A stretch of DNA of 64,000 nucleotides, taken from contig DATKSU010000005.1 of NCBI GenBank assembly GCA_035531495.1, positions 41,984 to 105,983 of the forward strand, given 5' to 3'. A program made the translations under genes and the position numbers. Below are positions 2,294 through 45,544 of this stretch, piece by piece. A model generated the notes under the pieces. That model ran no database searches and was not told the origin of the DNA. It saw only the letters and a list, made by a program, of their open reading frames with translations. Each line of letters starts with the position of its first letter. Position 1 is the stretch's first letter. The DNA comes from Minisyncoccota bacterium. GTDB lineage: Bacteria > Patescibacteriota > Minisyncoccia > Phycocordibacterales > Phycocordibacteraceae.

Positions 2294-2923
2294 TTAACTC
2301 TTCGGCTTCCTAACTAAGATCTCGGCCTTGATATTAAACATGGGGGTCCCGTCGGGGTGAGTGGCTTTGGCCCAGCCATCCCCTTCGTTGTAGGAAAGCA
2401 CTTCCCAGTCAGAATACAGTTCCTTTATTTCTCCCAAGGCGGGGTAAAAATGCACTCGATCCGTTTTCGAGAAATCCCCTTCTACAGTAAACGCGGCGAT
2501 GGCATTCAAACCTCCTTCTCTCGTGTGTTCCTTGATATTCCGAATAAACGCTTCAGCCTCTTGCCTTGTCAGGTGATGGAGCATGAAAGTCGAAACGACG
2601 AAATCGTACTCCTTTGTAAGACCCTCCCTTGCGTCGCCGACTTCCGCTTTGAAGTTCGAGAGTGATTCCTTCTCGGCGAAGCGATTCATCGCCTCTACCC
2701 CTACGCGGGAAATGTCTATCGCGCTGACCTGAAAACCGCGTTGCGCTAGAGCCAGCGCATTCCTTCCCTGCCCCGCGCCAAATTCGATAACCTTGGCGTC
2801 TTTAGGTATGAGTGTCGCGCCTTCAAGGACAAAGGCCTCTGGCCTGCCTCCGCCAAAGACCTTGTCGCTTTCGGAATACCGTTGGTCATACTTTTCGGAC
2901 AGACCGCTTCTTGGCTTTTCCAT
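2294..2923 (-). CDS. class I SAM-dependent methyltransferase, TehB-like
   Basis: VIEFGAGQGRNALALAQRGFQVSAIDIS matches SAM-binding motif I with the TehB-type architecture. 209 aa. About 50% GC, lower than the core. Confidence 0.75.
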   Translation of the reverse strand: MEKPRSGLSEKYDQRYSESDKVFGGGRPEAFVLEGATLIPKDAKVIEFGAGQGRNALALAQRGFQVSAIDISRVGVEAMNRFAEKESLSNFKAEVGDAREGLTKEYDFVVSTFMLHHLTRQEAEAFIRNIKEHTREGGLNAIAAFTVEGDFSKTDRVHFYPALGEIKELYSDWEVLSYNEGDGWAKATHPDGTPMFNIKAEILVRKPKS

Positions 2924-2970
2924 ATTAAGAAAGTATATGAAATTTTATATTCAATCACAGAAGACACTCA

Positions 2971-3597
2971 CTAGAGCCGGGAAGCTAAAATCTTCTCAAT
3001 GAGCAATTGTTTTGATTCCTCGCTCCCGAATTCATGATCGGCGCCCACTTCGCTTGCGTCGATATGGAGCTTCGGCATCGCGAGCGCGGTAAGCACCTCA
3101 GCGCTTTTGTGTTCTCTCATATATGCAGTCGTACTCGGACTAAAGGGGTTCTGGAACTTGTTCTTCTTCTCATCTTCGTTCAATGAATCTATGTACTTAA
3201 GCGCTGCTTCAGAGTTATCGTTGTCTATCGTAATCAACGCATAGCGCGTCGTCGACAAAGTACTTCTGCGGCTGCCGAGATAATACGCGACGATAACTGC
3301 TGAGAAGCTGTGCGCGACGAAGATGATTTGCGCAGGCTTCCGTTTTTGACTCGCTACCTCGATAGCTTCATCGAGGTCGGAAAAGTAATCTTCCATGGAC
3401 ATCGCATTCATGTCAGGAAGTGAGTCGTCATGGTAAAGCGGATCGTTCGCGAACTGTATGGAAATCGTGGAGCCGTGTTTTTTCAGAGCATCAAACAGGT
3501 ATTGAACGAGCGGCTCGTCCTTGCCGCCTGAGATGCCCGATATGATGACATAAAGCGTGTCGGTTGCATCATTGCGAGCCGTATTGAACTGGGCCAT
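2971..3597 (-). CDS. alpha/beta-hydrolase fold protein (putative esterase)
   Basis: Nucleophile-elbow-like IIFVAHSFSAVI (GxSxG-type) in a 208-aa protein. Low-GC context. Confidence 0.55.
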   Translation of the reverse strand: MAQFNTARNDATDTLYVIISGISGGKDEPLVQYLFDALKKHGSTISIQFANDPLYHDDSLPDMNAMSMEDYFSDLDEAIEVASQKRKPAQIIFVAHSFSAVIVAYYLGSRRSTLSTTRYALITIDNDNSEAALKYIDSLNEDEKKNKFQNPFSPSTTAYMREHKSAEVLTALAMPKLHIDASEVGADHEFGSEESKQLLIEKILASRL

Positions 3598-4695: not shown

Positions 4696-5298
4696 ATGAC
4701 CAAGGATGACGGACGCGTCGTGTTTCTCGAGGGACGTCGCGCGTATCTGCGACCGCCACAGGAATCGGACATTCCCTTGTTACTGCGCTGGTTCAATGAT
4801 CCGGGCGTGCGGAAGTTCCTCGGGCGGCTCTATCCGATGACCGAGGCGCAGGAGAAGAAGTTCATCATGAGGACGTTCGACGAAGCGCGGAACAATCTCG
4901 TCTTCATCATTGTCCTCAAGGGCGCGTCTCCGGAACGCGATCGACCCATCGGCACGATGGGCCTCCATCAGATCGAGTGGCACAACGGCGTCGCGACGAC
5001 GGGGGCGGCAATCGGCGAGAAGAGTTGCTGGGAGAAAGGTTACGGGACGGAAGCGAAAATGCTCATGCTCGAATACGCCTTCAATGCCCTGAACCTTCGC
5101 AAGATATACTCCCGCGTCCTCGCCACGAACCACCGCAGCAACGCCTACAGCAAGAAGTGCGGCTACACGCACGTCGCGACGCTGCCGGAGCGCCACTTTC
5201 GCGACGGCCGCTATGTCGACGAGCACATCCTCGAGGTGCGCGCCGAGACGTGGCGCGCGCTGTGGGAACGTTCGAGAAAGAAGTTCTTGCCGAAATGA
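4696..5298 (+). CDS. GNAT family N-acetyltransferase (RimJ/RimL-like)
   Basis: 200 aa with a typical GNAT core (LHQIEWHNGVATTGAAIGEKSCWEKGYGTEAKMLMLEYAF) and C-terminal RDGRYVDEHIL. Confidence 0.8.
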   Translation: MTKDDGRVVFLEGRRAYLRPPQESDIPLLLRWFNDPGVRKFLGRLYPMTEAQEKKFIMRTFDEARNNLVFIIVLKGASPERDRPIGTMGLHQIEWHNGVATTGAAIGEKSCWEKGYGTEAKMLMLEYAFNALNLRKIYSRVLATNHRSNAYSKKCGYTHVATLPERHFRDGRYVDEHILEVRAETWRALWERSRKKFLPK

Positions 5299-5331: not shown

Positions 5332-6930
5332 TTACGCCGGCAATTCAACGATGAAGGTCGAGCCCCTGCCCTGCCCTGCCGATTCGGCGCGGATGGTGCC
5401 GCCGTGCGCGGCGACGATGTTCTTCGCGATGTAGAGACCGTAGCCGGTGGAGTATACGTTCACCTTCTGCGATTCCTTGCCGTGGCCGCCCTCGGTGAAG
5501 AGCCGGGCTTTGTCTTCGTCCGTGATGCCGACGCCGGTATCCTTCACCGCGAATACGAGCTTGCCGTTCTCCTTCTTGAGCGAGACGGCGATTGAGCCCG
5601 ACGGGGTGTAATTGATAGCGTTCTCGATGAGATTGCGCAGCACGTGGCTGCCGAGCTCGGCGCGGTCACCCGTCATCTGGTACGACTGCGAGTCGTCGGC
5701 CGCAAATGAGAGCGCGAGACCTTTCGCCTCCGCTCCGGGTCGTTCCTTCTCCGCTATCTCCGCAGCAAGCGCCTTCAAGTCGAACGGCTCCTTCTTGTAC
5801 GTCATCGTACCCTTCTTCTGGTTCGACGCCTTGAGGATATCCGCGACCGAGTCCACGCCATCGCGCGACTGCGCGAGCGCGCGCTCGACGAGCGGCCGCA
5901 GCTCCTGCGACAGCGCGCCGAAATCCCCGTCGAGGAGCGCAGCGAACGTCCCCATATCTTTCGTGAGGAACCCTTTCACCTCGTGGCCGATGAAGTGCAG
6001 AAGTCCTTCCTGCCGCTCATTCGTCTGTTCGAGCTCCTCACTCAACTTCTCAAGATTCAGCATGTCCATGACGATCTTGACGCTCCCGATGAGCACGATG
6101 ATGAACGCAGTTATGTTGATGGCGACGGCGCTCAGGCTCACGGAATAAATGATGTTAACGAAACTGAAAACGGTCACCATAAAACCGAGCAGTCCGGCAG
6201 TCGCAACCTTCAGGTTGAAATTGAATAATCGGTGCCGATAGATGGCGTATGAGATGAGTGCGATGAACGGGAGCAAGAAGAGCGCGGCGAGAGGTATGAA
6301 GCTGAGTTGGTTGAGGAATACGGGAAGGAAAACGTTAAAAAGAAGTATGAGAATTGCGGTGAGTGCCATTCCGGCAGCAATCGAATACTCCTGTTTGCGT
6401 TCTTGAACCTCTGTGCTTCCCCAAGCCTTCCGAATAATTGAGGTGACACCGGCGATAAGAAGACCGAAAGCAACTATAGAGAAAATGATAATACCTGGCC
6501 CCCGTTCAGGATTCGTGACGTATCCAGGAGGAGCAAGCGCGGTAATGCCCGAAAATACGAAAGGGGTCAGAACCAGTATCATGGTCATTCCCACGATAGG
6601 AATGAGGCCGAATTTATACCAGCGCGGGAAAGTCACCTTATCCTTCGGAAAGACGTATGCGAGCTGGAAGAAGAGGAGGGCGTGAAGCGTGGAGAGAAAA
6701 AGATGGAATCGGAGCGCCCAGAGGGTCGCGTCGATAGTCGTGAACTTGTACTCGAGGTAATTCGAAACGCCCCAGATGGCGGTAAGAATGGAGAAATAGA
6801 AGAACGTCCGACTGGTTATACTCCTCGGATTCGTGAGATAGATGAGGAACCCGAGCAAGATGATGCCGGCGATAGCGACGCCGACCGAAAGCAGGTCGAA
6901 ATTAATATCGACGAGCGCGGTGATTCCCAT
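5332..6930 (-). CDS. sensor histidine kinase with polytopic N-terminal membrane domain
   Basis: About 8 TM helices, then an H-box (FIGHEVKGFLTKDMG) and HATPase_c motifs (NLIENAINYT; VKDTGVGI; GGHGKESQKVNVYSTGYGLYIAKNIVAAHGGTI). No adjacent response regulator. Confidence 0.9.
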   Translation of the reverse strand: MGITALVDINFDLLSVGVAIAGIILLGFLIYLTNPRSITSRTFFYFSILTAIWGVSNYLEYKFTTIDATLWALRFHLFLSTLHALLFFQLAYVFPKDKVTFPRWYKFGLIPIVGMTMILVLTPFVFSGITALAPPGYVTNPERGPGIIIFSIVAFGLLIAGVTSIIRKAWGSTEVQERKQEYSIAAGMALTAILILLFNVFLPVFLNQLSFIPLAALFLLPFIALISYAIYRHRLFNFNLKVATAGLLGFMVTVFSFVNIIYSVSLSAVAINITAFIIVLIGSVKIVMDMLNLEKLSEELEQTNERQEGLLHFIGHEVKGFLTKDMGTFAALLDGDFGALSQELRPLVERALAQSRDGVDSVADILKASNQKKGTMTYKKEPFDLKALAAEIAEKERPGAEAKGLALSFAADDSQSYQMTGDRAELGSHVLRNLIENAINYTPSGSIAVSLKKENGKLVFAVKDTGVGITDEDKARLFTEGGHGKESQKVNVYSTGYGLYIAKNIVAAHGGTIRAESAGQGRGSTFIVELPA

Positions 6931-6942
6931 GTCGTAAGGATA

Positions 6943-8007
6943 TCAGACGATTGACACTGCTTCTTCGAGCGGGAAGCGTAGCGCGTGTGCAGTAGGAGGA
7001 TCAGCGCGGCCGATGCGGAACATGAAAGCGATGTGCTTCCCGTCCGCGTTGAAAATCTGTGACGCTTTCCCGTATGCAGTCATGACGAGCCGCTGCTCCG
7101 CTGTCGTGAACATATCGCTCTCTCCTGCCGCTATCTTAAGCTTGAAGAACAAGACGCCGGTGAGCGGCTGAAAGCTGAGGCCGAGCGACGTCGCGGCGAG
7201 CCAGGTCCGCTCTACTGCGCGTCCGACTTTCACGAAGTCGATTGGTTCCGTGCCATCGATGATGAACGCCCCCATGGCGGCAGCGGAAGCATTCGTAGCC
7301 CCGTTCTGCTTCGCTACGATGCGATTGAAGCCGAGCTTGGCAAGGATGCGCATGACGGACCAGTTATTGAACATCTTGAACATCTTTTCCGCCGGCGGAG
7401 GCAGTTCGAGCGTCTTGATGTAAAAGCCTATCTTCTTCGCATCGTCTTCCTCCTTGGTCCAGGTCACGTGACTGAAAAAGAAATCATGAAGAGCGCGATT
7501 CGCGAGCATCACTTCCTCATTCGTCGAGCCGACGCGCCCGAGGACCGCGATGGCTTCCTTATCCTTTACGAGCTTGAGTGATCCTGGACGGCTTCCCACG
7601 GCGGCACTATGGAGCGTGTCCTCTTCGGCCTGCGTCAACGGCTCGGTGGCGTAGGGCTTGCGGTTCGAGATGCGTTCATAAATGAAATCCGCGAGCACGT
7701 CTCTCGGCGCGGAAGCGTCTTTGCGCAACGTGACCGTCGCGACATGCCACGCGTCGCCTTTGTCCGGAAAATACGAGACATTGGCCGCATATCCCTCTTT
7801 CGAAGAGGCAATAACGAGGTTCTCGAGCGCCGCGCCGCAGGCGAGATACGACGCGCGCTGGCCCCAGCCGTAGTAGGACTGATCGCGCTCCGGGCGTACG
7901 TGAATCTCGACCGTCAGACCGGAGACGACGAAGCGCCACGGCTGGCAATTCTCTCCGGAAGGCGCTTGGTTCGCTGCAGCAAGGATACGTTCCAGCGCGG
8001 TATCCAT
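6943..8007 (-). CDS. tandem-domain nitroreductase-family protein (Acg-like / SagB-type dehydrogenase-like)
   Basis: SGENCQPWRF nitroreductase signature near the N-terminus. The second half of the 354-aa protein is also nitroreductase-like. Confidence 0.7.
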   Translation of the reverse strand: MDTALERILAAANQAPSGENCQPWRFVVSGLTVEIHVRPERDQSYYGWGQRASYLACGAALENLVIASSKEGYAANVSYFPDKGDAWHVATVTLRKDASAPRDVLADFIYERISNRKPYATEPLTQAEEDTLHSAAVGSRPGSLKLVKDKEAIAVLGRVGSTNEEVMLANRALHDFFFSHVTWTKEEDDAKKIGFYIKTLELPPPAEKMFKMFNNWSVMRILAKLGFNRIVAKQNGATNASAAAMGAFIIDGTEPIDFVKVGRAVERTWLAATSLGLSFQPLTGVLFFKLKIAAGESDMFTTAEQRLVMTAYGKASQIFNADGKHIAFMFRIGRADPPTAHALRFPLEEAVSIV

Positions 8008-8012
8008 AGATC

Positions 8013-9200
8013 TTACAATCCGAAGGATCGCGCGAACGCTTCGGCGGCGGCGCGGCGGCGTGATTGTGATTCTTTTGAGTCGTAGCTGGACTCGAGCTTT
8101 TCGTCGAGAGAAATCAGTGCCCGATCATTGATGAGCGGCTGGCCGGCGAGTATCTTGCGGACGCAGTATGCGACCGCCGCGCCGTTCACCATAGCCGCGA
8201 TGCCGAGTTGCGGCCATGAGACGAGGGTCTTGCCCATCTCTTTTAGGGATTCCTGCATACGGATGGTGACGGTATCGGCGCCCACCCACTTCGTAATCAT
8301 CTTCCCGATGCCGAACTTGTCGAGCCCTTTGAGCGTCTCGTAGGAGACGTCACCCATGCGCCCGTGGAAGAATTCAGGGTGCGGCTTCATGTCATGGCGT
8401 TCGATCTCAATCAGAGCGTTATCGCCGTTATCGGCACCCATGACGATGGGGATGCGTCTCTTCCGCGCCTGTTCGCGGATGAGATACTTGAGCGCGAGAT
8501 TATCGATTTCGTCTACCACTATGTCGAGACCGTCGAAGAATTTCTCGATGTTCCCTTCCGTCAGTCCGTCAGGGAAGAGCTCGAGTTCGGTATAGGGATT
8601 TATCTCGTAGATGGTTCTCGCCGCCATCTCGACCTTCAGCATCCCGAGCCGGTCAGCACCGGCAAGGATGCGGTTCGTATTCGAAAGCGCGAGCCGATCC
8701 ATGTCGGCCAGCTTCATCTTCTTCCCTCCGCCGGACAATGCGATTGCAAACGCGACCGATGAGCCGACAGACAAGCCCGCGATGCCGATGGCGGCGTTAT
8801 AGAACTTCTCCTGCTCCTCTTCCGTGACGAGGTTCCGGTTGCGCGCCGTGCGCACGATGCGGTACTCGTCTTCCGGAAGGATGTGCGCGGCCAGATAGCG
8901 CCAGGGGAGGTATGCCCACCTGCCGTGCTCATGGAGCGGCTTCTCGTCTTGGAGCGATTTATAGTACGCCTGGAACTCTTTCTCAAAATCGGGCGTGTAG
9001 ACCTTCGAGGGATTCTTTATGCCGAAAAGCTCGCGCTGCTCTTCTTCGTAGTCGTCCGATATCTGCTTGATAGCGCCTTCTTTCACGAGCGACTCAAGGC
9101 GGGTGGTATCCTTCTCGCGTGAGAGGTCGAGAATAGTGGGCTTGGATTCGACGGGTTCGCTCGCGAGCTTGTCCAGAACGTTTCCAAGATTTTTCGACAT
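8013..9200 (-). CDS. ThiF/MoeB/E1-like adenylyltransferase-family protein with ~130-aa N-terminal extension
   Basis: Rossmann nucleotide-binding loop IGIAGLSVGSSVAFAIALSGGG, then E1-like core (RIPIVMGADNGDNALIE). 395 aa. Confidence 0.7.
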   Translation of the reverse strand: MSKNLGNVLDKLASEPVESKPTILDLSREKDTTRLESLVKEGAIKQISDDYEEEQRELFGIKNPSKVYTPDFEKEFQAYYKSLQDEKPLHEHGRWAYLPWRYLAAHILPEDEYRIVRTARNRNLVTEEEQEKFYNAAIGIAGLSVGSSVAFAIALSGGGKKMKLADMDRLALSNTNRILAGADRLGMLKVEMAARTIYEINPYTELELFPDGLTEGNIEKFFDGLDIVVDEIDNLALKYLIREQARKRRIPIVMGADNGDNALIEIERHDMKPHPEFFHGRMGDVSYETLKGLDKFGIGKMITKWVGADTVTIRMQESLKEMGKTLVSWPQLGIAAMVNGAAVAYCVRKILAGQPLINDRALISLDEKLESSYDSKESQSRRRAAAEAFARSFGL

Positions 9201-9220
9201 ATGAGATGGTTAAAGGCGTA

Positions 9221-10783
9221 TCAATGGCCGTTTATGACCCACTTCTGCTTGATGCCCGGCGGAAAGTATTTCGGATGCTCGTGCGGCCAAAAGACGAGGC
9301 GAGGGATGACCTTCTGGCGTATCGAACCATAGAGATAACGATACTCGTCACTCGAACTTGAAAGGCTTTTTATGATGCTTTCCGTCAGCGCATCTTTGAT
9401 GGATTCGCTATCCTTTACGCCCGCGGCGAGCTCGACGTTGATTTCGAGGTATTCGTTATGCTTCGCGTCGTGCTCAGTCGTCATCGTGAAGCGTCCGGTG
9501 ATGGATTTCTCGATCGCGGGATTCTGCAAGCCGATCTTCACGTGCTCCGGGAAGATGATGGCGCCGTAGAGCTTCGTCGAGAGGTCGGAGCGTTCGTAGA
9601 GATAGACGAACGGCAGCTGTGTGACGGTATCATCGATTCCGGCACGCTTCGCCTCCGCGGCGAGATTGATGCCGACGTCTGTGCACATCTTCACGACGTC
9701 ATCATACGTGAGCACGCCGCCCTGATCGCCGATGTCGTACCGGATGAACGGGAGCGGCGTACCGCCGGTCGCATGAATCTGGCCCTCCTTCCCCGCGTCG
9801 AAGGCGACGAAGTCCGGAATGAACTGCGCCAGGGTCGGCAAGCGGCGCGCCTCGCTGAAAAGCTTCCGGTAGAGCGCGTCATGCCTCAGGGCGAGCCGGC
9901 GCAAGAGTATCGAGAGCGGCGTCTCGGTGGCCATCGAGCCGAGCTCGGCGCTGCCGTAGATGTTCATGATGCTGCGGTAGGGATCCTTCATCCCGGTCTT
10001 CTTCATGAGGTACTCGCGGAAATGCTCGGAGAACGCCTCCGCGGCGCAGACGATGCGCATGTCCCACTGCGCCCATTCGATGCCGTGCTCGGGACCTTCG
10101 TCGATGAGATCCTTCATGAACGGCGGGTAGCCGCAGAGAATGAGTTGTTCGTACGACGGCGCCACGCGCGTGAGCGCCTCGAATATCTCTTTCTTGTTCA
10201 CGCCGGGCGTGATGATGGTGAGCGGCCAGCCGTTCTCCGAGATGCGGCGGAACGCTTCATATGTCAGTGTGCCCCCGATCCACACGCCCATGCCGAAGCC
10301 GATGACGACGAGCGTCGATTTCTTCGGGTCGAGGCCGCTGCGCTCGACGAACAGCCGGTGGTACACCATCGACGCTTCATGCGTATCATCCATGCGCGGG
10401 ATGTAGAACGGCTGTCCGGTCGAGCCGGACGTCGCGGTGAGGACGAGCGGCTTCTCGGCGAGCGCGTGCGCGACGCAGAGCGTATCCCACGGGTGCACGC
10501 GCAGGTAATTCGCCTTCGTTATGGGCGGGATGCGCTCTACGTCCTTGCTGCCGCGGATGGAGCCGGCATCGAAACCGAGCCGTTCGAGGAAGCTGCGGTA
10601 TGCCGGGACGTTCTTAAGCGCATACTTGAAACGGTTCAGGATGGCCGCGCTCGTCGCGCGCGACCAGTCCGCGCTTTCGTTCGTGCGAAGCTTCGTGATG
10701 AAGGCCGGGGAAACCGAAAAAATACGAGGCCGTGCTGGGGTCTTTTTGGTACGCACATAAGCCGATTGCCGGCTCTGTCGCAT
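9221..10783 (-). CDS. PaaK-like (phenylacetate-CoA ligase / F390-synthetase family) adenylate-forming enzyme
   Basis: P-loop-like TSGSTGQPFYIP, IGFGMGVW, YGSAELG. Start moved to ATG 10783-10781 (MRQSRQSAYV...). The 222 Arg-rich residues upstream in the track ORF look like wrong-frame extension. Confidence 0.75.
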   Translation of the reverse strand: MRQSRQSAYVRTKKTPARPRIFSVSPAFITKLRTNESADWSRATSAAILNRFKYALKNVPAYRSFLERLGFDAGSIRGSKDVERIPPITKANYLRVHPWDTLCVAHALAEKPLVLTATSGSTGQPFYIPRMDDTHEASMVYHRLFVERSGLDPKKSTLVVIGFGMGVWIGGTLTYEAFRRISENGWPLTIITPGVNKKEIFEALTRVAPSYEQLILCGYPPFMKDLIDEGPEHGIEWAQWDMRIVCAAEAFSEHFREYLMKKTGMKDPYRSIMNIYGSAELGSMATETPLSILLRRLALRHDALYRKLFSEARRLPTLAQFIPDFVAFDAGKEGQIHATGGTPLPFIRYDIGDQGGVLTYDDVVKMCTDVGINLAAEAKRAGIDDTVTQLPFVYLYERSDLSTKLYGAIIFPEHVKIGLQNPAIEKSITGRFTMTTEHDAKHNEYLEINVELAAGVKDSESIKDALTESIIKSLSSSSDEYRYLYGSIRQKVIPRLVFWPHEHPKYFPPGIKQKWVINGH

Positions 10784-10845
10784 GGATGCGCGCACGTTAC
10801 CACATAAATTGGCGTGTGTAAACGCCTGTGGGGATAGCGCTCTGA

Positions 10846-12354
10846 CTACGCCAGTCCCGGGAAGTAGTCGGTCTTGATGGAAAGGCGCGGGACGCCGAGC
10901 GTGTGGAGCGCGCGTTTCATGGCGTCCACCATGCCCGGCGGGCCGGAGAGGTAGAAGAGGCGGTTGCGATAATCGGGAATCTCGCGCTTGATGAACGCCG
11001 CGTCGATTGCGCCTGCGTGCGCGCCCGGCATGAGGGTCGTGCTGTCTGTTATGGCGTAGACGGTCCGCAAGCCGCGGGTCGCCGCGCTCGCGAAGACGTC
11101 CTGGTAGGCGACCTCTTCGGCCGTGCGGCTCGAGTAGAGGAGGACGGCATCGCGCGACTCCCCCGCCGCGACCAGGTGCCGCGCCATACTCGCGAAGGGC
11201 GTGACGCCCACCCCGCCCGCGATAAAGGCGAGCTTGTGATTCTTGTCGACCGGCATGGTGAAATCGCCCGAGAGCGATGCGGCCGTGACGACGCCGTCTT
11301 GCGGGATGGCCGCAAGCGCGCGCTTGAAGGCGCTCGGTTTCTCGTAGAAGCGGACGCCGAGCCGGATCTGGCCGTCCTCCGGCGCCGAGGCGATAGTGAA
11401 GTAGCGGCGGTTGCCGCGGCTGTCGAACGGCACATCGCGCAGCGTCCACTCGAGGTATTGCCCCGGACGGAAGGTGAACGGGCGATCGGGCCGGAAGACG
11501 AACTCGTAGATGCCGCGCGCGAGCTTATGGCGCTCCGTGAGCGTGAGCATGTAGCGGCCTTTCGGGCTCACGACGTACGAGAAGAGATTCCCGGCAAGGA
11601 GTGCCGTCTCCGGCGTGAAGTAGAAGGAGCCGACGTGCGCGGCCGGCACGAAGAGCACGCCGACGAGCGCGCCATAGATGATGCGCAGCGTGCGCGACGG
11701 CGGCATCGTGAGGGGTTCGGTGAGCATGACAAAGCCGAGGAAGAAGAACGCCGAGTGGAGGATGGTCTCGTTCAGGCCGGTCACGGGGCTGAGCGACGTG
11801 AACGCGGTGGCGAGGAGCGCGGCGACGCCGAACGCGATGACGAGGTCGTAGCGCCGGAGCTTGTGGACGATGGCGAGCCCGCCGATGACGACGAACGGCA
11901 GCAAAGGCAGGTTCCCCGACACCCACCACGTCGCGTTCACCGCGAAGACGAAGGCCGAGAACGCGACCGCGAACGCCGCCGGGTTGAAGACGTGCTTGTT
12001 CCCGAGCGAGAAGATGTACTTCGACGCGGTGCCGGCGGCGGCGATGAGCGCGTAGAGGATGGTTGCGCCGATGCTGCCGGCCGAGATGGGCGGCAGGATG
12101 AGGACGAGGATGAGCCCCGTGATGAGCGAGGATTCCGCGTTCGTCACCGCGTCGAAGATGTTCGCGAAAATGAGGTTCGTCGCCCACGAGCCCGCGACGA
12201 GCACGATGAGCGTATAGAGGAGCGGGACGGGCGCGTACGGCAGGATGCCGAATACGCCGAAGGCGAGCGCGACGACATAGAGAACGACGAGGTAGTAGAG
12301 CACGAGCCGATACATCGTCGTGCGGTCGATGAGGCGCTTCAGAGCGGTGATCAT
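10846..12354 (-). CDS. membrane-anchored FAD/NAD(P)-binding oxidoreductase (FNR-like C-terminal module on a ~250-aa polytopic N-terminal domain)
   Basis: C-terminal RYFTIASAP (RxYS FAD motif) and GGVGVTPF (NAD(P) motif). N-terminal half has 6-8 hydrophobic helices. Confidence 0.7.
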   Translation of the reverse strand: MITALKRLIDRTTMYRLVLYYLVVLYVVALAFGVFGILPYAPVPLLYTLIVLVAGSWATNLIFANIFDAVTNAESSLITGLILVLILPPISAGSIGATILYALIAAAGTASKYIFSLGNKHVFNPAAFAVAFSAFVFAVNATWWVSGNLPLLPFVVIGGLAIVHKLRRYDLVIAFGVAALLATAFTSLSPVTGLNETILHSAFFFLGFVMLTEPLTMPPSRTLRIIYGALVGVLFVPAAHVGSFYFTPETALLAGNLFSYVVSPKGRYMLTLTERHKLARGIYEFVFRPDRPFTFRPGQYLEWTLRDVPFDSRGNRRYFTIASAPEDGQIRLGVRFYEKPSAFKRALAAIPQDGVVTAASLSGDFTMPVDKNHKLAFIAGGVGVTPFASMARHLVAAGESRDAVLLYSSRTAEEVAYQDVFASAATRGLRTVYAITDSTTLMPGAHAGAIDAAFIKREIPDYRNRLFYLSGPPGMVDAMKRALHTLGVPRLSIKTDYFPGLA

Positions 12355-13094
12355 GGCGTGGTGTAGGTTACGAAACCGCTCGTGAATATCGCCGTACCGG
12401 TATCCGTGATGGCGTACCCCTCGAGCCCCGGCGTGCGCTCGATGAAAGCGATGCCGTCCTTCCCCATCGCGAATGCCGCGGTGGCGTAACGGTCGGCTTC
12501 GAGCACGTCGGGGCCGATGACGGTCAGGCTCACGATATCACGCAGCTCGCGCGACGGATCGTGCGGGTCGTAGATATGCGCTCCGCGCAGATAGGAGCCG
12601 GAGGTCGCAATGCCGGCGCCCTTCGGATAGACGACCTTCACGATCTCGTCAGTCGCGAACGGATTGCGGATGCCGACCTTCCAGGGCTCGCCGTTCGCAT
12701 TCTGTCCGCTCATGGCGATGTCACCGCCGGCGTTCACAAAGAAATGCTGTTGGCCGTTCTCCCGGATGCGCGCGGCCGCGTTCTTGACCGCCCAGCCCTT
12801 CACGATGCCGGACGGGTCGAGTGACCCGTCCGGCCGGCGGATGTCGAAGTAGCCGCCCGTCTCCGCCTTCGTCCGCTCGGCGATGGCGAAGACCTCGCGC
12901 ATCTCGCGGCTCGCGGTCTCGGGCGCGAACTCGCCGCGATTGATGCGTGATATCTCGCTCGTGTCCTTGTACGTACTGAAACGCTCGTCCACCGCTTGGA
13001 GGTACGCGAAGGCGTCCTCAACGGCCGGCTTCGTCCCCTCGCCCACGATCTCAATCTCGACGGGCATGCCCATCACGGGGCGAATCTCGCGCAT
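12351..13094 (-). CDS. apbE: FAD:protein FMN transferase (ApbE family)
   Basis: ApbE-like motifs (TSEISRINR; SGIVKGWAV; GGDIAMSG; IATSGSY). 4-nt overlap with the upstream gene. Confidence 0.85.
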   Translation of the reverse strand: MREIRPVMGMPVEIEIVGEGTKPAVEDAFAYLQAVDERFSTYKDTSEISRINRGEFAPETASREMREVFAIAERTKAETGGYFDIRRPDGSLDPSGIVKGWAVKNAAARIRENGQQHFFVNAGGDIAMSGQNANGEPWKVGIRNPFATDEIVKVVYPKGAGIATSGSYLRGAHIYDPHDPSRELRDIVSLTVIGPDVLEADRYATAAFAMGKDGIAFIERTPGLEGYAITDTGTAIFTSGFVTYTTP

Positions 13095-13097
13095 GGA

Positions 13098-13628
13098 CTA
13101 GCTCTGCGCTTGCTGCAGCGCGGCGGCGAGCGACTGTCGGAACGCGATGCTCGTGTCGGTCGCGCCGGAGATGAGGTCGACGTTCGCGCTCTGCACGGAG
13201 AGCGCCTCCTGCGAGAGCATCGGCATCGCCTGCTGGTTGATATAGACGGAGGTCGAGTGGGTGTTCGGGTACTGGAGGAAGGAGACGTTCGCGAGGGCGC
13301 CGTTCTTGATGGTCGCCTGCACCTCGACCGGGCCGTAGTAGGCGTCCGCGACGGCGCCGGTGTAGGTGCCGTCCTTGTAGCCGCTCTTCGCCGGCGGCGG
13401 CGTCGCAGGCGTAGCGGCCGGATTTGCGGCCGGCGGCGGGTTGCCGGAGTTCGCCGACGACGGCTGCACGGGTGCCGGTGGCGTCGCAGCAGGCGCACCG
13501 CCCCCGGCTGGCGCCGTCACGTTATTTGAAATCTGGATGCCGGACGGCGCCGATGCCCCCGCCGAGCGGGAAAAAACATACAGGGCCGAAGCCCCGACAA
13601 GTACGAGCGCTAGCAACGTCTTTTTCAT
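13098..13628 (-). CDS. secreted FMN-binding domain protein (NqrC/RnfG-like flavinylation target)
   Basis: Signal/anchor MKKTLLALVLVGASALYVF, Pro/Ala-rich linker, and the canonical flavinylation motif ISGATDTS near the C-terminus. Confidence 0.8.
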   Translation of the reverse strand: MKKTLLALVLVGASALYVFSRSAGASAPSGIQISNNVTAPAGGGAPAATPPAPVQPSSANSGNPPPAANPAATPATPPPAKSGYKDGTYTGAVADAYYGPVEVQATIKNGALANVSFLQYPNTHSTSVYINQQAMPMLSQEALSVQSANVDLISGATDTSIAFRQSLAAALQQAQS

Positions 13629-41045: not shown

Positions 41046-42251
41046 CTAGATGGCGCTCGCGAGGTTGTAGATAGGCATGAGGACGGCGGCAAGGAGGACA
41101 CCGACGCCGACGCCGAGCATGACGATCATGATGGGTTCGATGAGGCCGACGAGGGTGTCGACCGAGTTCGTCACCTCGCGGCTGTAGAACTTCGCGAGCG
41201 TGGTGAGGATCTTTCCGAGCTCGCCCGTCTCCTCGCCGACGCGCGTCATCGCGACCATGATGCCCGGCATCTCCGGATGCTTGCTCATCGCGCTCGCGAT
41301 GGACGAGCCGCCCTTCACGTCGAGCTCGATGTCTATGAGCGCGGCTGCGTAAGCGGCATTCCCCACCACCGACGCCGATATCTCGAGCGCTTCGATGACC
41401 GAGACGCCGGACATGAGCATCGTGGAGAAGTTGTCGGCGATGCGCGCGAGATAGAGCTTCTTGTAGAGATCGCCGACGTACGGCGTCGAGATCTTCAGCG
41501 TGTCGAGGATGAGCTTGCCGCGCTCGGTCTTGCGCATCTGCCAGAGGTAGAAGCCGAGCGCGATGAGGCCGATGAGGATGAAGATGCCATACTCGACGAG
41601 GAAGTTCGAGAACCCGATGATGATGCGCGTATAGAGCGGCACCTGGGTGCCGGAGTCGATGAGCACGGCGCTGATCTTCGGGATGACGAGGGTGAGCATG
41701 AGCCCCATGACGCCGAAGAAGACGGCGACGACGAAGATCGGATAGATGAGCGCGTTCTCGGCCTTGCTCATGACCTCATAGCTGCGGTCGAGGTAGTCGG
41801 CGAGGTAGACGAACGTCTCCGACAACTTGCCGGATTCCTCGCCCGCGCGGACCATGTTGACATAGAAGACGGAGAAGACTTCCGGGTGGCGCGCGAGCGC
41901 CTTGCTGATGGAGCTGCCGCCCTGGAGGTCGTCTCCCACCACCGAGAGCACGTCGGCGAGGCGCTTGTTCGTCACCTCGGCGGCGAGGAGGCGGAAGACG
42001 CGCAGCGCCGACACCTGCGCTTCGAAGAGGGTCGAGATCTGTCGCGAGAGGATGACGACGTCCTTGTTCGAGACGCGGTTGAGGAACGGGATATCCATTT
42101 GGAGGACGGATCGCTTCTCGCCCGACTCTATCTTCGAGATGATGAGGTTGCGCCGCTGGAGCGCGGAGACGGCGACTTCCTGCGACGGCGCCTCGATGGA
42201 GCCGTCCCGCTCGTGCCCGTCCTGGTCGATGGCGTGGTAGGTGAAGAGCAT
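41046..42251 (-). CDS. pilC: type IV pilus platform protein (GspF family)
   Basis: 401 aa with two GspF repeats and three TM segments. Confidence 0.95.
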   Translation of the reverse strand: MLFTYHAIDQDGHERDGSIEAPSQEVAVSALQRRNLIISKIESGEKRSVLQMDIPFLNRVSNKDVVILSRQISTLFEAQVSALRVFRLLAAEVTNKRLADVLSVVGDDLQGGSSISKALARHPEVFSVFYVNMVRAGEESGKLSETFVYLADYLDRSYEVMSKAENALIYPIFVVAVFFGVMGLMLTLVIPKISAVLIDSGTQVPLYTRIIIGFSNFLVEYGIFILIGLIALGFYLWQMRKTERGKLILDTLKISTPYVGDLYKKLYLARIADNFSTMLMSGVSVIEALEISASVVGNAAYAAALIDIELDVKGGSSIASAMSKHPEMPGIMVAMTRVGEETGELGKILTTLAKFYSREVTNSVDTLVGLIEPIMIVMLGVGVGVLLAAVLMPIYNLASAI

Positions 42252-42280: not shown

Positions 42281-43342
42281 TCATAGGTAGCGCTCGAAGG
42301 TCTTCGGGTCCATCGCGTGCTCGTACGCGTGCTCGACCGTTACCTCCCCGCGCCGCACGAAGTCCGCGAGGAGGCGATCCATGCTGATCATGCCATCCTG
42401 GGAACCCGTCTGGATGACGGAGGCGATCTCGTGCGTCTGCTTCTCGCGGATGAGGTTCGCCACGGCGTTGTTATTGATGAGAAGCTCGTATGCGGGGATG
42501 AGCCCGCCCGAGATGCGCGGAATGAGCCGCTGGGAGAAGACGCCGGCGAGAGACCCCGAGAGCTGCACGCGCACCTGGTCCTGCTGCTCGGCCGGGAACA
42601 TGTCGATGATGCGGTCGATCGTCTGCGCCGCGTTATTCGTGTGGAGCGTGGAGAAGACGAGGTGGCCAGTCTCGGCGGCCGTCACGGCGGCCGAGATGGT
42701 CTCGTGGTCGCGCATCTCGCCGACCATGATGACGTCGACATCCTCGCGGAAAGCGCCCTGGAGCGCCGTATGGAAGTCCGGCGTATCGATATGCACTTCG
42801 CGCTGGTGGACGAGCGATTTCTTCGGCATGAACAGGTACTCGACCGGGTCTTCGATCGTGAGGATATGCTGCGCTTCGACCTCGTTGATGTGCTCGAGCA
42901 TCGAAGCGAGCGTCGTCGACTTCCCTTGCCCGACGGGACCGACGACGAGGAAGAATCCCTGCGCGCGCTGCGTGAACGTCTCGAGGATTGGCGGCAGGTT
43001 AAGCTCGGCAAGCGTCGCGATCTTGTTCGGGATAAGCCGGGAGGCCATCGCAATCGTGCCTTGCGTGCGATAGCCGTTGATACGGAACCGCGAGTCCTCA
43101 TGGTGCGCGTACGAGAGGTCGACGGCCTGGTCCTTCTCGAACGTCTCCCAGCGACCTTCCGGCACGATTGAACGCAACATCACTTCGGTGTCTGCGGCCG
43201 TGAACGCTTGGTATCGCGTGAGCGGCACGAGCTCGCCTGAGACGCGGATGACCGGCGACCCGCCCGCGAAGATATGCAAGTCGGAGCCGCCTTGGGCGAT
43301 GACGAGGTCGAAGAGCTCCTTGAGGCGCTTGTCGATCGTCAT
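42281..43342 (-). CDS. pilT: twitching-motility retraction ATPase
   Basis: Walker A GPVGQGKST; Asp/His boxes. Start moved to MTIDKRL; 94 Arg/Ser-rich residues upstream are removed. Confidence 0.9.
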   Translation of the reverse strand: MTIDKRLKELFDLVIAQGGSDLHIFAGGSPVIRVSGELVPLTRYQAFTAADTEVMLRSIVPEGRWETFEKDQAVDLSYAHHEDSRFRINGYRTQGTIAMASRLIPNKIATLAELNLPPILETFTQRAQGFFLVVGPVGQGKSTTLASMLEHINEVEAQHILTIEDPVEYLFMPKKSLVHQREVHIDTPDFHTALQGAFREDVDVIMVGEMRDHETISAAVTAAETGHLVFSTLHTNNAAQTIDRIIDMFPAEQQDQVRVQLSGSLAGVFSQRLIPRISGGLIPAYELLINNNAVANLIREKQTHEIASVIQTGSQDGMISMDRLLADFVRRGEVTVEHAYEHAMDPKTFERYL

Positions 43343-43343
43343 G

Positions 43344-43742
43344 TTAGCTCGACGCGGGCTTCCCGCCCTCGATGATGCGCACGACTTCAGCGAGGACTTC
43401 CGACGGGATGGCCGAGGCCTTGATGATGTATCCGTCGGCCTTGAGCTGCTTCGCCTTCTCGATGTCGGAATCCTGTCCTTGGTTCGAGAGGATGATGATC
43501 TTGCTGTCCGACGCGAGCTTCTCCTTGCGGATCGTCTGCAGCGCTTCGAAGCCGTCGATGCCCGGCATAATGAGGTCGAGCAGGATAGCGTCCGGGGCCG
43601 GCACCCCGCCTTTCCGGAGCGCATCGAGAAGCTTCTCTCCGCCGTCGAACACGTTCACCTCATGTCCCGCGCTCCTGAACTTGACCGCGTACAGGTCGAG
43701 CAGGAATCGGTCATCGTCGACGAGGTACACGCGATAGGCCAT
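43344..43742 (-). CDS. CheY-like single-domain response regulator (PilH-like)
   Basis: LVDDD...D(ILLDLIMP)...K. 132 aa, between pilB and pilT. Confidence 0.85.
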   Translation of the reverse strand: MAYRVYLVDDDRFLLDLYAVKFRSAGHEVNVFDGGEKLLDALRKGGVPAPDAILLDLIMPGIDGFEALQTIRKEKLASDSKIIILSNQGQDSDIEKAKQLKADGYIIKASAIPSEVLAEVVRIIEGGKPASS

Positions 43743-43756
43743 TGCTAGCCAGTATA

Positions 43757-45544
43757 CTATGCCGCGCCGTCAATATCTTCCGGCTCGGGGAAAAGCTCGC
43801 CGCCGAGCGTATTCACCTCTTCGAACGGGATGGCGCCGGCGAGCGCTTTCACTATCGCGTCTTCGCGCATCGTGCGCATGCCGCCCGCGCGGGCCGCGGC
43901 ATAGATGTTCTCCTCCGTCGGCTGCTTGAGTACGGCTTCCTCGAGCGGTTTGTTCATCTGCAGTATCTCGAAGACGCCTGTGCGGCCGCGCGTCCCGTCC
44001 GCGCACTCCGCCGTCGGCTTCGCATGATAAAAATTCTTGAACGGCGGGAGCTTCGCGCGGTATTTCTCCGGCAAATCCTCGAACTCCTGGTCGAGGAGCC
44101 CTTTGAGGCTCTCGGAAACGGGGAACGGCTCACCCGCGCCGTCGCACAGCTTCCGGACGAGACGCTGGCCGATGACGGCGACCAAGGTCGGCGCGATGAG
44201 GAACGGGTCGACGCGCATGTCGATGAGGCGCGGAATGGCGCCCGCGGCCGTGTTCGTGTGGATGGTCGAGAAGACGAGGTGGCCCGTAAGCGCGGCTTGC
44301 ACGGCGAGCGCTGCGGTCTCCTTGTCGCGAATCTCGCCGACCATGATGACGTCCGGATCCTGGCGCAGGATGCTGCGGAGTCCGTTCGCGAACGTGTAGC
44401 CGATTTCCGGCCGCACCTGGCTCTGCGAGACGCCGGGCACTTCGTATTCGACCGGATCCTCGAGCGAAACGACGTTCGACGTCTCGCGGTCGAGCTCGGA
44501 CATCATGGCGAAGAGGGACGTCGACTTGCCGGAACCCGTCGGCCCGGCGATGAGGATGATGCCGTACGGGACCTTCATGACCTCGCGGACGACCTTGAGC
44601 TGCGCCTCGTCGAACCCGACCGACTCGAGGGTTGCGGTGGCGGCCGACTGGTCGAGGATGCGCATCACGACCTTCTCGCCGTACTGCGTCGGGAAGGTGG
44701 AGACGCGGAAGTCGATGCGGCGCTTGTCGACCGTCGCCGAGAAGCGGCCGTCCTGCGGCTTGCGCTTCTCGTCGAGGCGCAGGCGCGCGAGGATCTTGAT
44801 GCGCGCGACGACCGCCTCGTGAACCTTGCTCGGCAGCTCGAGTGACGTGTGGAGGTCGCCATCGACGCGGAAGCGGACGCGTGTCTTCTTCGGCGTCGGC
44901 TCGACGTGGATGTCGGAAGAGTGCCCTTCGATGGCATACCGCAAGATGGTGGAGACGATCTTCGTCACCGGCGCATCCTCCTTGAGCGCTTCGGAATGGC
45001 CCGAAAGGTCGAGTGATTCGGCGCCCGTCGCGGCTTCATCGGCTGGCGCCGGGGTCCCGGAAACGTTCGCCGACGGCTTCGTCGTCGTCTCGTACTCTGA
45101 GAGCGCCTTGCCGACTTCGCCTGAGAGATTCTGGTACGCCTCGATGACGCGATCGAAATCCTGCTTCGTAATGAGGAAGACCTTATACGGGATGGATGAT
45201 TCTCCCGAGATGAATTGCAGCGCATCGAGCGCTTCGATGTTGTCGGGATCGACGATGCCGACCTCGAGAGCTCCGTCGGCCATGTCGAGGGGCACGATGC
45301 CGTAATGGCGTGCCGAATCGACCGGGATATAGCTGAACGTCTCTTCGTCGGCCGGCGAATCGCCGAGGATGCGCGTCGGCAGACCGTACTCCTTCCCCGC
45401 TTCCGCGAGCGCGTCGGGGAGCGAGATACCCTGTTCGGACAGCGCCTCCTCGAGCGGCCGCTTCTTCGCGAGCTCCGCTTCGACCGTCGCGCGGCCTTGC
45501 GCCGAGAGCATGCCCTTGTCGACGAGTAGTGCGAGGAGATTCAT
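43757..45544 (-). CDS. pilB: type IV pilus assembly ATPase (GspE family)
   Basis: Walker A GPTGSGKST plus a tetracysteine-region equivalent. 595 aa. Confidence 0.95.
   Translation of the reverse strand: MNLLALLVDKGMLSAQGRATVEAELAKKRPLEEALSEQGISLPDALAEAGKEYGLPTRILGDSPADEETFSYIPVDSARHYGIVPLDMADGALEVGIVDPDNIEALDALQFISGESSIPYKVFLITKQDFDRVIEAYQNLSGEVGKALSEYETTTKPSANVSGTPAPADEAATGAESLDLSGHSEALKEDAPVTKIVSTILRYAIEGHSSDIHVEPTPKKTRVRFRVDGDLHTSLELPSKVHEAVVARIKILARLRLDEKRKPQDGRFSATVDKRRIDFRVSTFPTQYGEKVVMRILDQSAATATLESVGFDEAQLKVVREVMKVPYGIILIAGPTGSGKSTSLFAMMSELDRETSNVVSLEDPVEYEVPGVSQSQVRPEIGYTFANGLRSILRQDPDVIMVGEIRDKETAALAVQAALTGHLVFSTIHTNTAAGAIPRLIDMRVDPFLIAPTLVAVIGQRLVRKLCDGAGEPFPVSESLKGLLDQEFEDLPEKYRAKLPPFKNFYHAKPTAECADGTRGRTGVFEILQMNKPLEEAVLKQPTEENIYAAARAGGMRTMREDAIVKALAGAIPFEEVNTLGGELFPEPEDIDGAA

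Follow-up and report, generated by a model that had tools for sequence, protein, structure and literature searches.

The closest described relatives of the genes considered here are enzymes that make oxazolones (azlactones) from N-acyl amino acids. Rv1355c was long annotated as MoeY, and in 2025 TrzS proved to form oxazolones from N-acyl amino acids by cyclising and desaturating them (Kleetz et al., J Biol Chem 2025, PMC12856293). Together with the N-acyltransferase TrzA, TrzS turns tryptophan and short acyl-CoAs into N-acyl tryptazolones at the expense of ATP and O2, an ATP-dependent cyclisation coming first and an O2-dependent C-alpha-C-beta desaturation second (PMC12856293). The exchange D217A in the ThiF motif of TrzS led to loss of cyclisation and of all products, and the exchanges R540A and Q651A in its FDO part impaired FMN loading and turnover (PMC12856293). 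The same logic has been described for TyzA/TyzB/TyzC of Mycobacterium tuberculosis (Grigg et al. 2023, PMC10404671) and for OxzA/OxzB of Pseudoalteromonas rubra (de Rond et al. 2021, bioRxiv 10.1101/2020.06.11.147165), and according to a 2025 review oxazolone formation is the only known ThiF-like chemistry on a small molecule (PMC12596934). Here we analyse a 64-kb stretch of DNA (the window; positions 41,984 to 105,983 of contig DATKSU010000005.1) from a Minisyncoccota bacterium, a member of the Patescibacteria, in which a four-gene operon on the minus strand encodes a ligase, an E1-like enzyme, a nitroreductase-family protein (NTR) and a histidine kinase (HK) with a seven-transmembrane (7TM) region. 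We consider it about an even chance (a probability of roughly 0.5) that this operon is a ligase-dependent variant of oxazolone biosynthesis of the OxzAB, TyzABC and TrzAS kind, coupled to a membrane sensor, and we give the same odds to its product being an oxazolone-type compound. The features of the operon are the following.

9221..10783, minus strand: PaaK-fold adenylate-forming ligase, 520 aa
8013..9200, minus strand: E1/ThiF-like ATP-dependent enzyme (E1), 395 aa
6943..8007, minus strand: nitroreductase-family protein (NTR), Acg-like, 354 aa
5332..6930, minus strand: 7TM sensor histidine kinase (HK), last gene of the operon, 532 aa
5306..5326: GC-rich hairpin with 9 G-C pairs, between the stops of the convergent HK (5332) and GNAT (5298) genes, likely the operon terminator as judged from its sequence

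The genes are separated by 20 nt (ligase-E1), 5 nt (E1-NTR) and 12 nt (NTR-HK), and 62 nt lie between the ligase and the reductase module upstream of it. A first-pass annotation of this DNA had already placed the first three genes here, co-oriented on the minus strand directly after genes for FMN_bind, ApbE and an RnfD-like reductase, and its family calls (a PaaK-like ligase, an E1/ThiF protein with an N-terminal extension, a nitroreductase) are borne out by the motifs, the Pfam ThiF match and the coverage of the Acg model described below. It overlooked the co-conserved 7TM kinase (6930..5332) and, in relatives of this locus, an amino-acid-deaminating enzyme encoded before the ligase.

E1 matches Pfam ThiF (1.3e-23) and has about 115 extra residues at its N-terminus, which are conserved. 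On the NCBI model NF005901 ('Rv1355c family protein') it scores 326 bits (3.6e-97) over model positions 9-357, the N-terminal extension included, and NTR scores 196 bits (1.3e-57) over positions 375-719 of the same model. When the two proteins were joined in silico, a single collinear match covered positions 9-719 of the 722 in the model and scored 528.2 bits, above the cut-off of 476. Since the joined sequence exceeds a curated cut-off in a single match, the pair represents a split Rv1355c-type protein, with E1 as the predicted N-terminal (cyclase) half and NTR as the predicted C-terminal (desaturase) half of the Rv1355c/TrzS family. As far as sequence comparison can tell, therefore, the pair is very probably a split TrzS-type enzyme, and the earlier statement that the genes could not be assigned to a described pathway is out of date, given what is now published on oxazolone synthetases of the TrzS/OxzB type (PMC12856293, PMC10404671, bioRxiv 10.1101/2020.06.11.147165).

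Details of both proteins are consistent with this assignment. NTR scores 227 bits (2.7e-67) on NF011424, a ThiF-fused family, and spans positions 2-317 of the 319 of the Acg-family model; because the whole Acg model is covered, it is a single-chain Acg/FDO-type protein. On the Acg family NF047509 (FDO-B) itself it reaches 161.5 bits, which is below the cut-off of 199 and lower than its scores on NF011424 and NF005901. It contains the motif APSGENCQPWRF, and the residues A15, P16, S17, N20, Q22, P23, W24, E62, N63, R112, N115, R116, R331 and R344 are conserved in 63 sequences, with the FMN-type residues intact. Its sole match among PDB sequences is Acg (2YMV, 2e-10); Acg was also the closest structure that Kleetz et al. 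found for TrzS (PMC12856293). In E1, 72 sequences have in common the motifs D166-x-D168...S173-N-x-N-R177 (DxDxLxLSNxNR), K189 and D230-E-I-D233, which can be aligned with those of TcdA, and the ATP-binding residues are intact as well. TcdA, the best solved sequence relative of E1, is likewise a cyclodehydration enzyme; the top structural match of E1 is AclA (9EGB). The Gly loop of E1 reads GLSVG, as in fused proteins of the Rv1355c type (e.g. the Sorangium 'Rv1355c family protein'), whereas that of OxzB-type proteins reads GLGGVGG.

When the ligase alignment was run against GTDB, with one genome for each species, 296 loci encoding a relative of the ligase were obtained. Neighbour counts were taken from the best 80 of the 296, all of them from Patescibacteria and from many named lineages, and refer to evaluable loci, most absences falling at contig ends. 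E1 is encoded directly beside the ligase in 71 of 72 such loci; at distances of up to 6 kb from the ligase, NTR is found in 53 of 65 loci and HK in 45 of 54, the latter gene being present in most gene-order classes. All four genes occur within 6 kb in 30 of the 40 loci that have 6 kb on both sides. The set is kept in at least six orders while the flanking genes differ, namely LIG-E1-NTR-HK, NTR-AADH-LIG-E1-ABH-HK, NTR-E1-AADH-LIG-HK, E1-NTR-LIG-HK, LIG-NTR-E1..HK and E1~lyase-LIG-NTR-HK (LIG, ligase; AADH, amino-acid dehydrogenase; ABH, alpha/beta-hydrolase; ~, fusion). Several members are also found fused to each other: ligase~ThiF (P0199), ThiF~ligase (P0256), ELFV dehydrogenase~ligase (P0207), ThiF~aromatic lyase (P0171), ThiF~NTR (P0133 and P0136, in Patescibacteria or Patescibacteria-type contexts, P0133 in Patescibacteria) and the triple fusion ELFV dehydrogenase~ligase~ThiF (P0318), which is present in two independent assemblies and is flanked by NTR, an alpha/beta-hydrolase and a 7TM kinase. 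These patterns indicate that the four genes have been inherited and rearranged together, and that the ligase-E1-NTR-HK operon is widespread among Patescibacteria (CPR, for Candidate Phyla Radiation). We are highly confident that they form one functional unit. The earlier view that ligase, E1 and NTR belong together, and are not three housekeeping genes, is upheld by the adjacency of E1 and ligase, by the number of orders and by the fusions.

The ligase contains the motif ATSGSTGQPFY, and in 61 homologues the adenylation motifs do not vary, namely TSGSTG, YG, GD, R..D and a C-terminal lysine, Lys512. A Pfam search with it gave no match, and on NCBIfam it matches PaaK, F390 synthetase and FlxY weakly, with 28-42 bits against cut-offs of 460-700. 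A profile built from 23 homologues finds PaaK structures at E 2e-7. Superposition of its AlphaFold model (pLDDT 87) on solved structures gave values of 26.5 for the PaaK BT_0428, 23.8 for ClxA, 23.2 for 2-hydroxyisobutyryl-CoA ligase, 23.1 for 6SIW (a PaaK-like ligase that we take to come from the NatL2 study) and 18.5 for EhpF. The ligase has 914 homologues at E<=1e-5, and we regard the genes as real and not as chance open reading frames (ORFs). The wider ligase family is 29-46% identical to the protein of the window and comprises 476 representatives (50% identity clustering, E<=1e-30); the source-named members examined, including relatives of a distant member, all come from Patescibacteria or allied candidate phyla. 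The ligase constitutes a distinct family. Its start is ambiguous, the model at NCBI (P0001, 511 aa; 100% identity across 98% of the window's protein) beginning 9 codons downstream of 10783. Upstream of 10783 the frame stays open for 222 codons more, running through the 3' end of the reductase gene and giving an ORF of 742 aa with a GTG start (9221-11449, minus strand).

We propose that this enzyme activates an amino-acid-derived carboxylic acid and so replaces the acyl-CoA-dependent N-acyltransferase of the known oxazolone clusters. The PaaK-type enzymes NatL2 and ClxA transfer an acyl-adenylate directly to an amine or hydroxyl, forming ester or amide bonds without CoA (PMC7204872, PMC12519233), which by analogy is a precedent for such a role and not a proof of it. 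That the ligase makes an N-acyl amino acid directly is a possibility to which we give somewhat less than even odds. The source of the acid is suggested by the relatives of this locus. Directly upstream of the ligase and on the same strand, 33 of 75 loci encode an ELFV dehydrogenase, a HisC-like class I/II aminotransferase or a class IV aminotransferase; the ELFV dehydrogenase resembles leucine and tryptophan dehydrogenases (best PDB matches LeuDH, 1e-86, and TrpDH, 1e-79). Other Patescibacteria-type loci have an aromatic ammonia-lyase in this position, its best match being the tyrosine ammonia-lyase FlxA (583 bits). As all of these occupy the one slot upstream of the ligase, four non-homologous amino-acid-deaminating enzymes share it.

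The pathway that we envisage would start with the deaminating enzyme encoded upstream in relatives, which would deaminate a hydrophobic or aromatic amino acid to a 2-oxo acid or an aryl-acrylate, a carboxylic acid in either case. The ligase would adenylate this acid and couple it to the amino group of an amino acid, yielding an N-acyl amino acid without an acyl-CoA acyltransferase. E1, from its family membership, would then adenylate the carboxylate of the N-acyl amino acid, so that attack by the amide oxygen closes a 5(4H)-oxazolone ring, and the FDO-type NTR, again from its family, would introduce a double bond between C-alpha and C-beta to give a conjugated, electrophilic 4-alkylidene oxazolone. 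Finally, the 7TM kinase would either sense the product or control its synthesis, probably via single-domain receivers. The activation and oxidation of a small-molecule acid, as suggested in the first-pass annotation, is probably correct.

Several observations weigh against this proposal. No FeeM/OxzA/TyzA/TrzA-like acyl-CoA-dependent N-acyltransferase is present in the operon or among the recurrent neighbours of the best 80 of 296 loci, while a control locus of canonical type (L088) has a FeeM acyltransferase gene directly upstream of its ThiF~NTR gene; the absent enzyme has an obvious substitute in the ligase. A search of the window by tblastn with one representative of each type of deaminating enzyme found none, and the enzymes seen in relatives yield chemically different acids (2-oxo acids or aryl-acrylates); they could instead supply or recycle the amino acid. 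The identity of 50-80% among the best 120 of the 914 ligase homologues is high for secondary metabolism and makes the ligase look like a core enzyme. In addition, the known FDOs use O2, and many Patescibacteria are thought to be anaerobes. The operon itself encodes no response regulator. The set is also incomplete in some loci. In two E1/NTR loci (L092 and L093) an aminotransferase is nearby and no ligase or kinase is found within 6 kb, a ligase-family protein (P0420) possibly sharing the contig of L092; in a Kaiserbacteria chromosome (L019; OY969413.1, 993 kb), whose ligase is 77% identical to that of the window, the order is aminotransferase-ligase-E1-kinase and NTR is absent from the 21-kb locus.

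It can also be the case, unlikely as we consider it, that the ligase and E1 each activate a carboxylate but the same enzymes make another heterocycle or activated acyl species. Such a product could be a six-membered ring formed from an N-(2-oxoacyl) amino acid (an oxazinone or morpholinedione), or a dehydro-dipeptide, or else a reactive acyl donor for an amine of a protein, a lipid or the cell wall. The lack of the acyltransferase that defines the known oxazolone clusters fits such a product, and the dehydrogenase~ligase~E1 fusion points to 2-oxo acid intermediates. In the NTR-AADH-LIG-E1 arrangement, moreover, an alpha/beta-hydrolase gene lies between E1 and the kinase (L046:13464-14339, L053:4425-5327, L094:7248-8153, L095:9732-10607). 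Its product, a candidate for a ring-opening or acyl-transfer step, could open or transfer an activated ring, and oxazolones are known to react readily with alcohols and water (PMC12856293). What speaks for the oxazolone is that E1 and NTR together score above the curated cut-off of a family shown to make oxazolones, and that the residues of both cyclase and oxidase are conserved.

A role in amino-acid catabolism or salvage we think improbable. Here a 2-oxo acid, formed by the aminotransferase or dehydrogenase, would be converted by the ligase to an acyl- or aryl-CoA that serves energy supply or salvage, E1 and NTR would have accessory functions in redox or cofactor metabolism, and the kinase would sense the supply of amino acids. 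The named families nearest to the ligase are indeed aryl- or acyl-CoA ligases, deaminating enzymes are encoded directly upstream of it, and its high conservation is of the kind seen in core metabolism. On the other side, the co-conserved genes include none for a 2-oxo-acid oxidoreductase, a decarboxylase, a thiolase or an enzyme that yields ATP, and catabolism leaves no role for an ATP-consuming E1 fused to the ligase or for an FDO fused to E1. Assignment of the ligase as a phenylacetate-CoA ligase was rejected: it reaches 37.1 and 41.8 bits on the PaaK models TIGR02155 and NF041878, whose equivalog cut-offs are 646 and 700, and has the fold and the adenylation motifs alone in common with PaaK.

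The first-pass annotation had viewed E1 and NTR in the frame of the thiazole/oxazole-modified microcins (TOMMs), noting that neither a YcaO protein nor a precursor peptide was encoded. A modification of this sort, in which E1 would adenylate the C-terminus of a peptide or protein in the manner of TOMM, microcin C or pantocin biosynthesis, NTR would oxidise it, and the precursor of a ribosomally synthesised and post-translationally modified peptide (RiPP) would be encoded elsewhere, is in our opinion very improbable. The absence noted earlier was confirmed, as none of the 29 large ORFs of the window tested against Pfam and NCBIfam matches YcaO and the gaps of 5-20 nt within the operon are too short for a precursor gene; moreover, no small-ORF family recurs beside the cluster in the 80 loci. 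The frame itself does not hold: the SagB-type (TIGR03605) and ocin-ThiF-like models are absent from the NCBIfam matches (E<=0.01), and E1, with 326 bits on the Rv1355c family, belongs to the sole ThiF family known to act on small molecules. A function of E1 as a MoeB/ThiF-type activator of a sulfur carrier, in line with the old 'MoeY' annotation, was also rejected (49-74 bits against cut-offs of 152-449), and no small beta-grasp ORF that could encode a MoaD/ThiS-type partner recurs in the operon or the 80 loci. Finally, it is hardly credible that these are unrelated housekeeping genes in inherited synteny, in spite of the syntenic genomes of Patescibacteria and the recurrence of DnaK/DnaJ/GrpE and tRNA synthetase genes nearby, or an anti-phage defence of the E1 type, for which the weak PADLOC E1-E2 matches of E1 (<=45 bits) could be invoked, since the set survives in at least six gene orders and several fusions amid changing flanks, and those matches, rejected as generic, reflect the Rossmann core, against 326 bits on the Rv1355c family, with no PADLOC match for the ligase or NTR.

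Returning to the proposed oxazolone operon, the place of the kinase in it deserves consideration. HK matches Pfam HisKA_7TM (6.6e-13, N-terminal 7TM region) and HATPase_c (4.3e-23), its H-box reads HFIGHEVKGFL in the translation, and it is the sole histidine kinase of its 7TM family detected in the window. The sole receiver ORF that an HMM (hidden Markov model) search detected in the window (43347-43769, minus strand) is located in a type IV pilus cluster, between the genes for a PilB-like (43757-45544) and a PilT-like (42281-43624) ATPase, and a link from HK to the pilus is possible. In 17 of the 80 loci a receiver is encoded at a distance of up to 6 kb from the ligase. In three ligase-less loci with another type of operon (L086, L090 and L091), a ThiF~NTR fusion gene directly precedes a 7TMR-DISM kinase gene, which is followed by receivers; the order in L086:5131-12019 is a 269-aa protein, the ThiF~NTR fusion (772 aa), the 7TMR-DISM histidine kinase, REC~HATPase and REC. 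In these loci an oxazolone-synthetase-like gene is thus paired, independently and for a second time, with a 7TM sensor. The genes upstream of ligase-less ThiF~NTR genes encode proteins of 573 aa (L085), 269 aa (L086) and 139 aa (L084) that gave no family match and have no similarity to the ligase or FeeM.

A signalling role is suggested by the fact that two unrelated 7TM kinases are genetically tied to ThiF/FDO genes. That HK senses the product of the operon is nevertheless doubtful, and we put it forward tentatively. More speculative still, and rather improbable as a whole, is a small-molecule signalling circuit of the Patescibacteria in which an electrophilic azlactone made from amino-acid-derived acids would be perceived by HK, as an autoinducer-like ligand or as a covalent chromophore or acyl group, and the signal relayed via single-domain receivers, for instance to the type IV pilus. 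Episymbiotic Patescibacteria use type IV pilus machinery to engage their hosts. If such a circuit existed, the pairing of ThiF~NTR with 7TMR-DISM kinases elsewhere would imply that oxazolones form a general class of signals in bacteria, for which cognate receptors exist in the membrane.

The genes upstream of the operon form a flavinylation module of three genes (10846-13628, minus strand) that ends 62 nt before the ligase:

FMN_bind protein, 176 aa, with an N-terminal signal-like hydrophobic segment and a Pro/Ala-rich linker
ApbE, short (247 aa), its ORF overlapping the reductase ORF by 4 nt
502-aa fusion of an RnfD/NqrB-like membrane domain with an FAD/NAD(P)-binding reductase

Because of its signal-like segment, the FMN_bind protein is probably extracytoplasmic. 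A modification linked to this flavoprotein module had been suggested earlier as a target of the operon. We rejected the link: ApbE is encoded near the ligase in 6 of the 80 loci, FMN_bind in 4 and the RnfD-like reductase in 3, as compared with 71 of 72 for E1, and all of these loci (L001, L005, L014, L019, L062 and L073, where the module recurs) belong to the closest relatives. The module is a lineage-specific neighbour and not a partner.

Other features around the operon were noted as well. A RimJ/RimL-type GNAT acetyltransferase gene (4696-5298, plus strand) is convergent with HK; homologues are encoded beside NTR in L007 and after HK in L016, and with 3 of 81 loci the gene is too rare for the core set, but its product could be an occasional tailoring or resistance enzyme. 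An accessory family of 303-318 aa (f18), with an invariant LGAGGME..RQ motif, is encoded between NTR and HK in L016, L020, L028, L029, L040 and L061 and is also present in L003, L005 and L017; a 305-aa member gave no match in Pfam, NCBIfam or the PDB, and a tblastn search of the window with one representative found no homologue. The GC content at third codon positions (GC3) is 0.72-0.74 in HK, NTR and E1, 0.81 in the ligase and 0.85-0.90 in the housekeeping genes of the window. The genes for a TehB-like methyltransferase and a 208-aa protein (2294-3597, minus strand) have a GC content of 0.49-0.52 and a GC3 of about 0.59-0.60. The anomalous composition of 2294-3597 and 5332-9200 suggests either that the operon was passed from one lineage of Patescibacteria to another or that its codon regime differs. 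Long antisense ORFs in GC-rich stretches (e.g. 9458-10807 and 10903-12366, plus strand) are composition artefacts.

The interest of the operon lies partly in its hosts. Patescibacteria have very small genomes with almost no recognised biosynthesis, and very few have been cultured. That a pathway of four to five genes, costly in ATP, is conserved in hundreds of species of this group implies that it probably serves something central to their lifestyle. The link to oxazolones provides a concrete chemical hypothesis that is testable by heterologous expression without culturing Patescibacteria, and it bears on an open question in the field, namely what oxazolones are for. The ligase family, which lacks a Pfam model, may in turn be a new CoA-independent biocatalyst for amide formation.

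We found no paper that connects oxazolones, or this set of genes, with the Patescibacteria, and a comparison with the described systems shows both what is shared and what is not. In flexirubin biosynthesis 4-coumarate is made and then activated. Like the flexirubin genes flxA and flxY, the lyase-type loci L082 and L089 have an FlxA-like tyrosine ammonia-lyase directly before the ligase. What differs is that the ligase resembles FlxY weakly (25-28 bits; the cut-off is 520), that genes for polyketides or polyenes are missing after it, and that elsewhere dehydrogenases or aminotransferases take the place of the lyase. Identity to the Patescibacteria ligase, which is about 80 residues longer, is 15-20% for EhpF and for the enzymes NatL2 and ClxA of the benzoxazole pathways (PMC7204872, PMC12519233). 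With OxzA/OxzB and TyzA/TyzB/TyzC the operon shares a ThiF-like ATP-dependent cyclase acting with an oxidase of the nitroreductase superfamily, and TyzB and TyzC, like E1 and NTR, are encoded by separate adjacent genes; OxzB-type E1 proteins differ in having the canonical GLGGVGG loop and no Rv1355c-type N-terminal region, and they are paired with acyl-CoA-dependent acyltransferases, as in L088 with its FeeM-domain gene. TrzA/TrzS (Rv1356c/Rv1355c of Mycobacterium and Rhodococcus; PMC12856293) resemble it in the collinear match over 9-719 of 722, the N-terminal extension, the GLSVG loop, the Asp motif for ATP binding and the Acg-like FDO, and the TrzS locus of M. tuberculosis likewise adjoins signalling genes, in that case for c-di-GMP turnover. 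In contrast to TrzA/TrzS, two separate genes encode the enzyme in most Patescibacteria loci, a PaaK-fold ligase and, in relatives, a deaminating enzyme are found in place of a TrzA/FeeM-type N-acyltransferase, a 7TM kinase is part of the operon, and the host is a Patescibacterium with a reduced genome and not an actinomycete. The catalytic core belongs to a known family, and the novelty lies in the supply enzyme, in the architectures, both split and fused, in the kinase as a partner and in the group of hosts.

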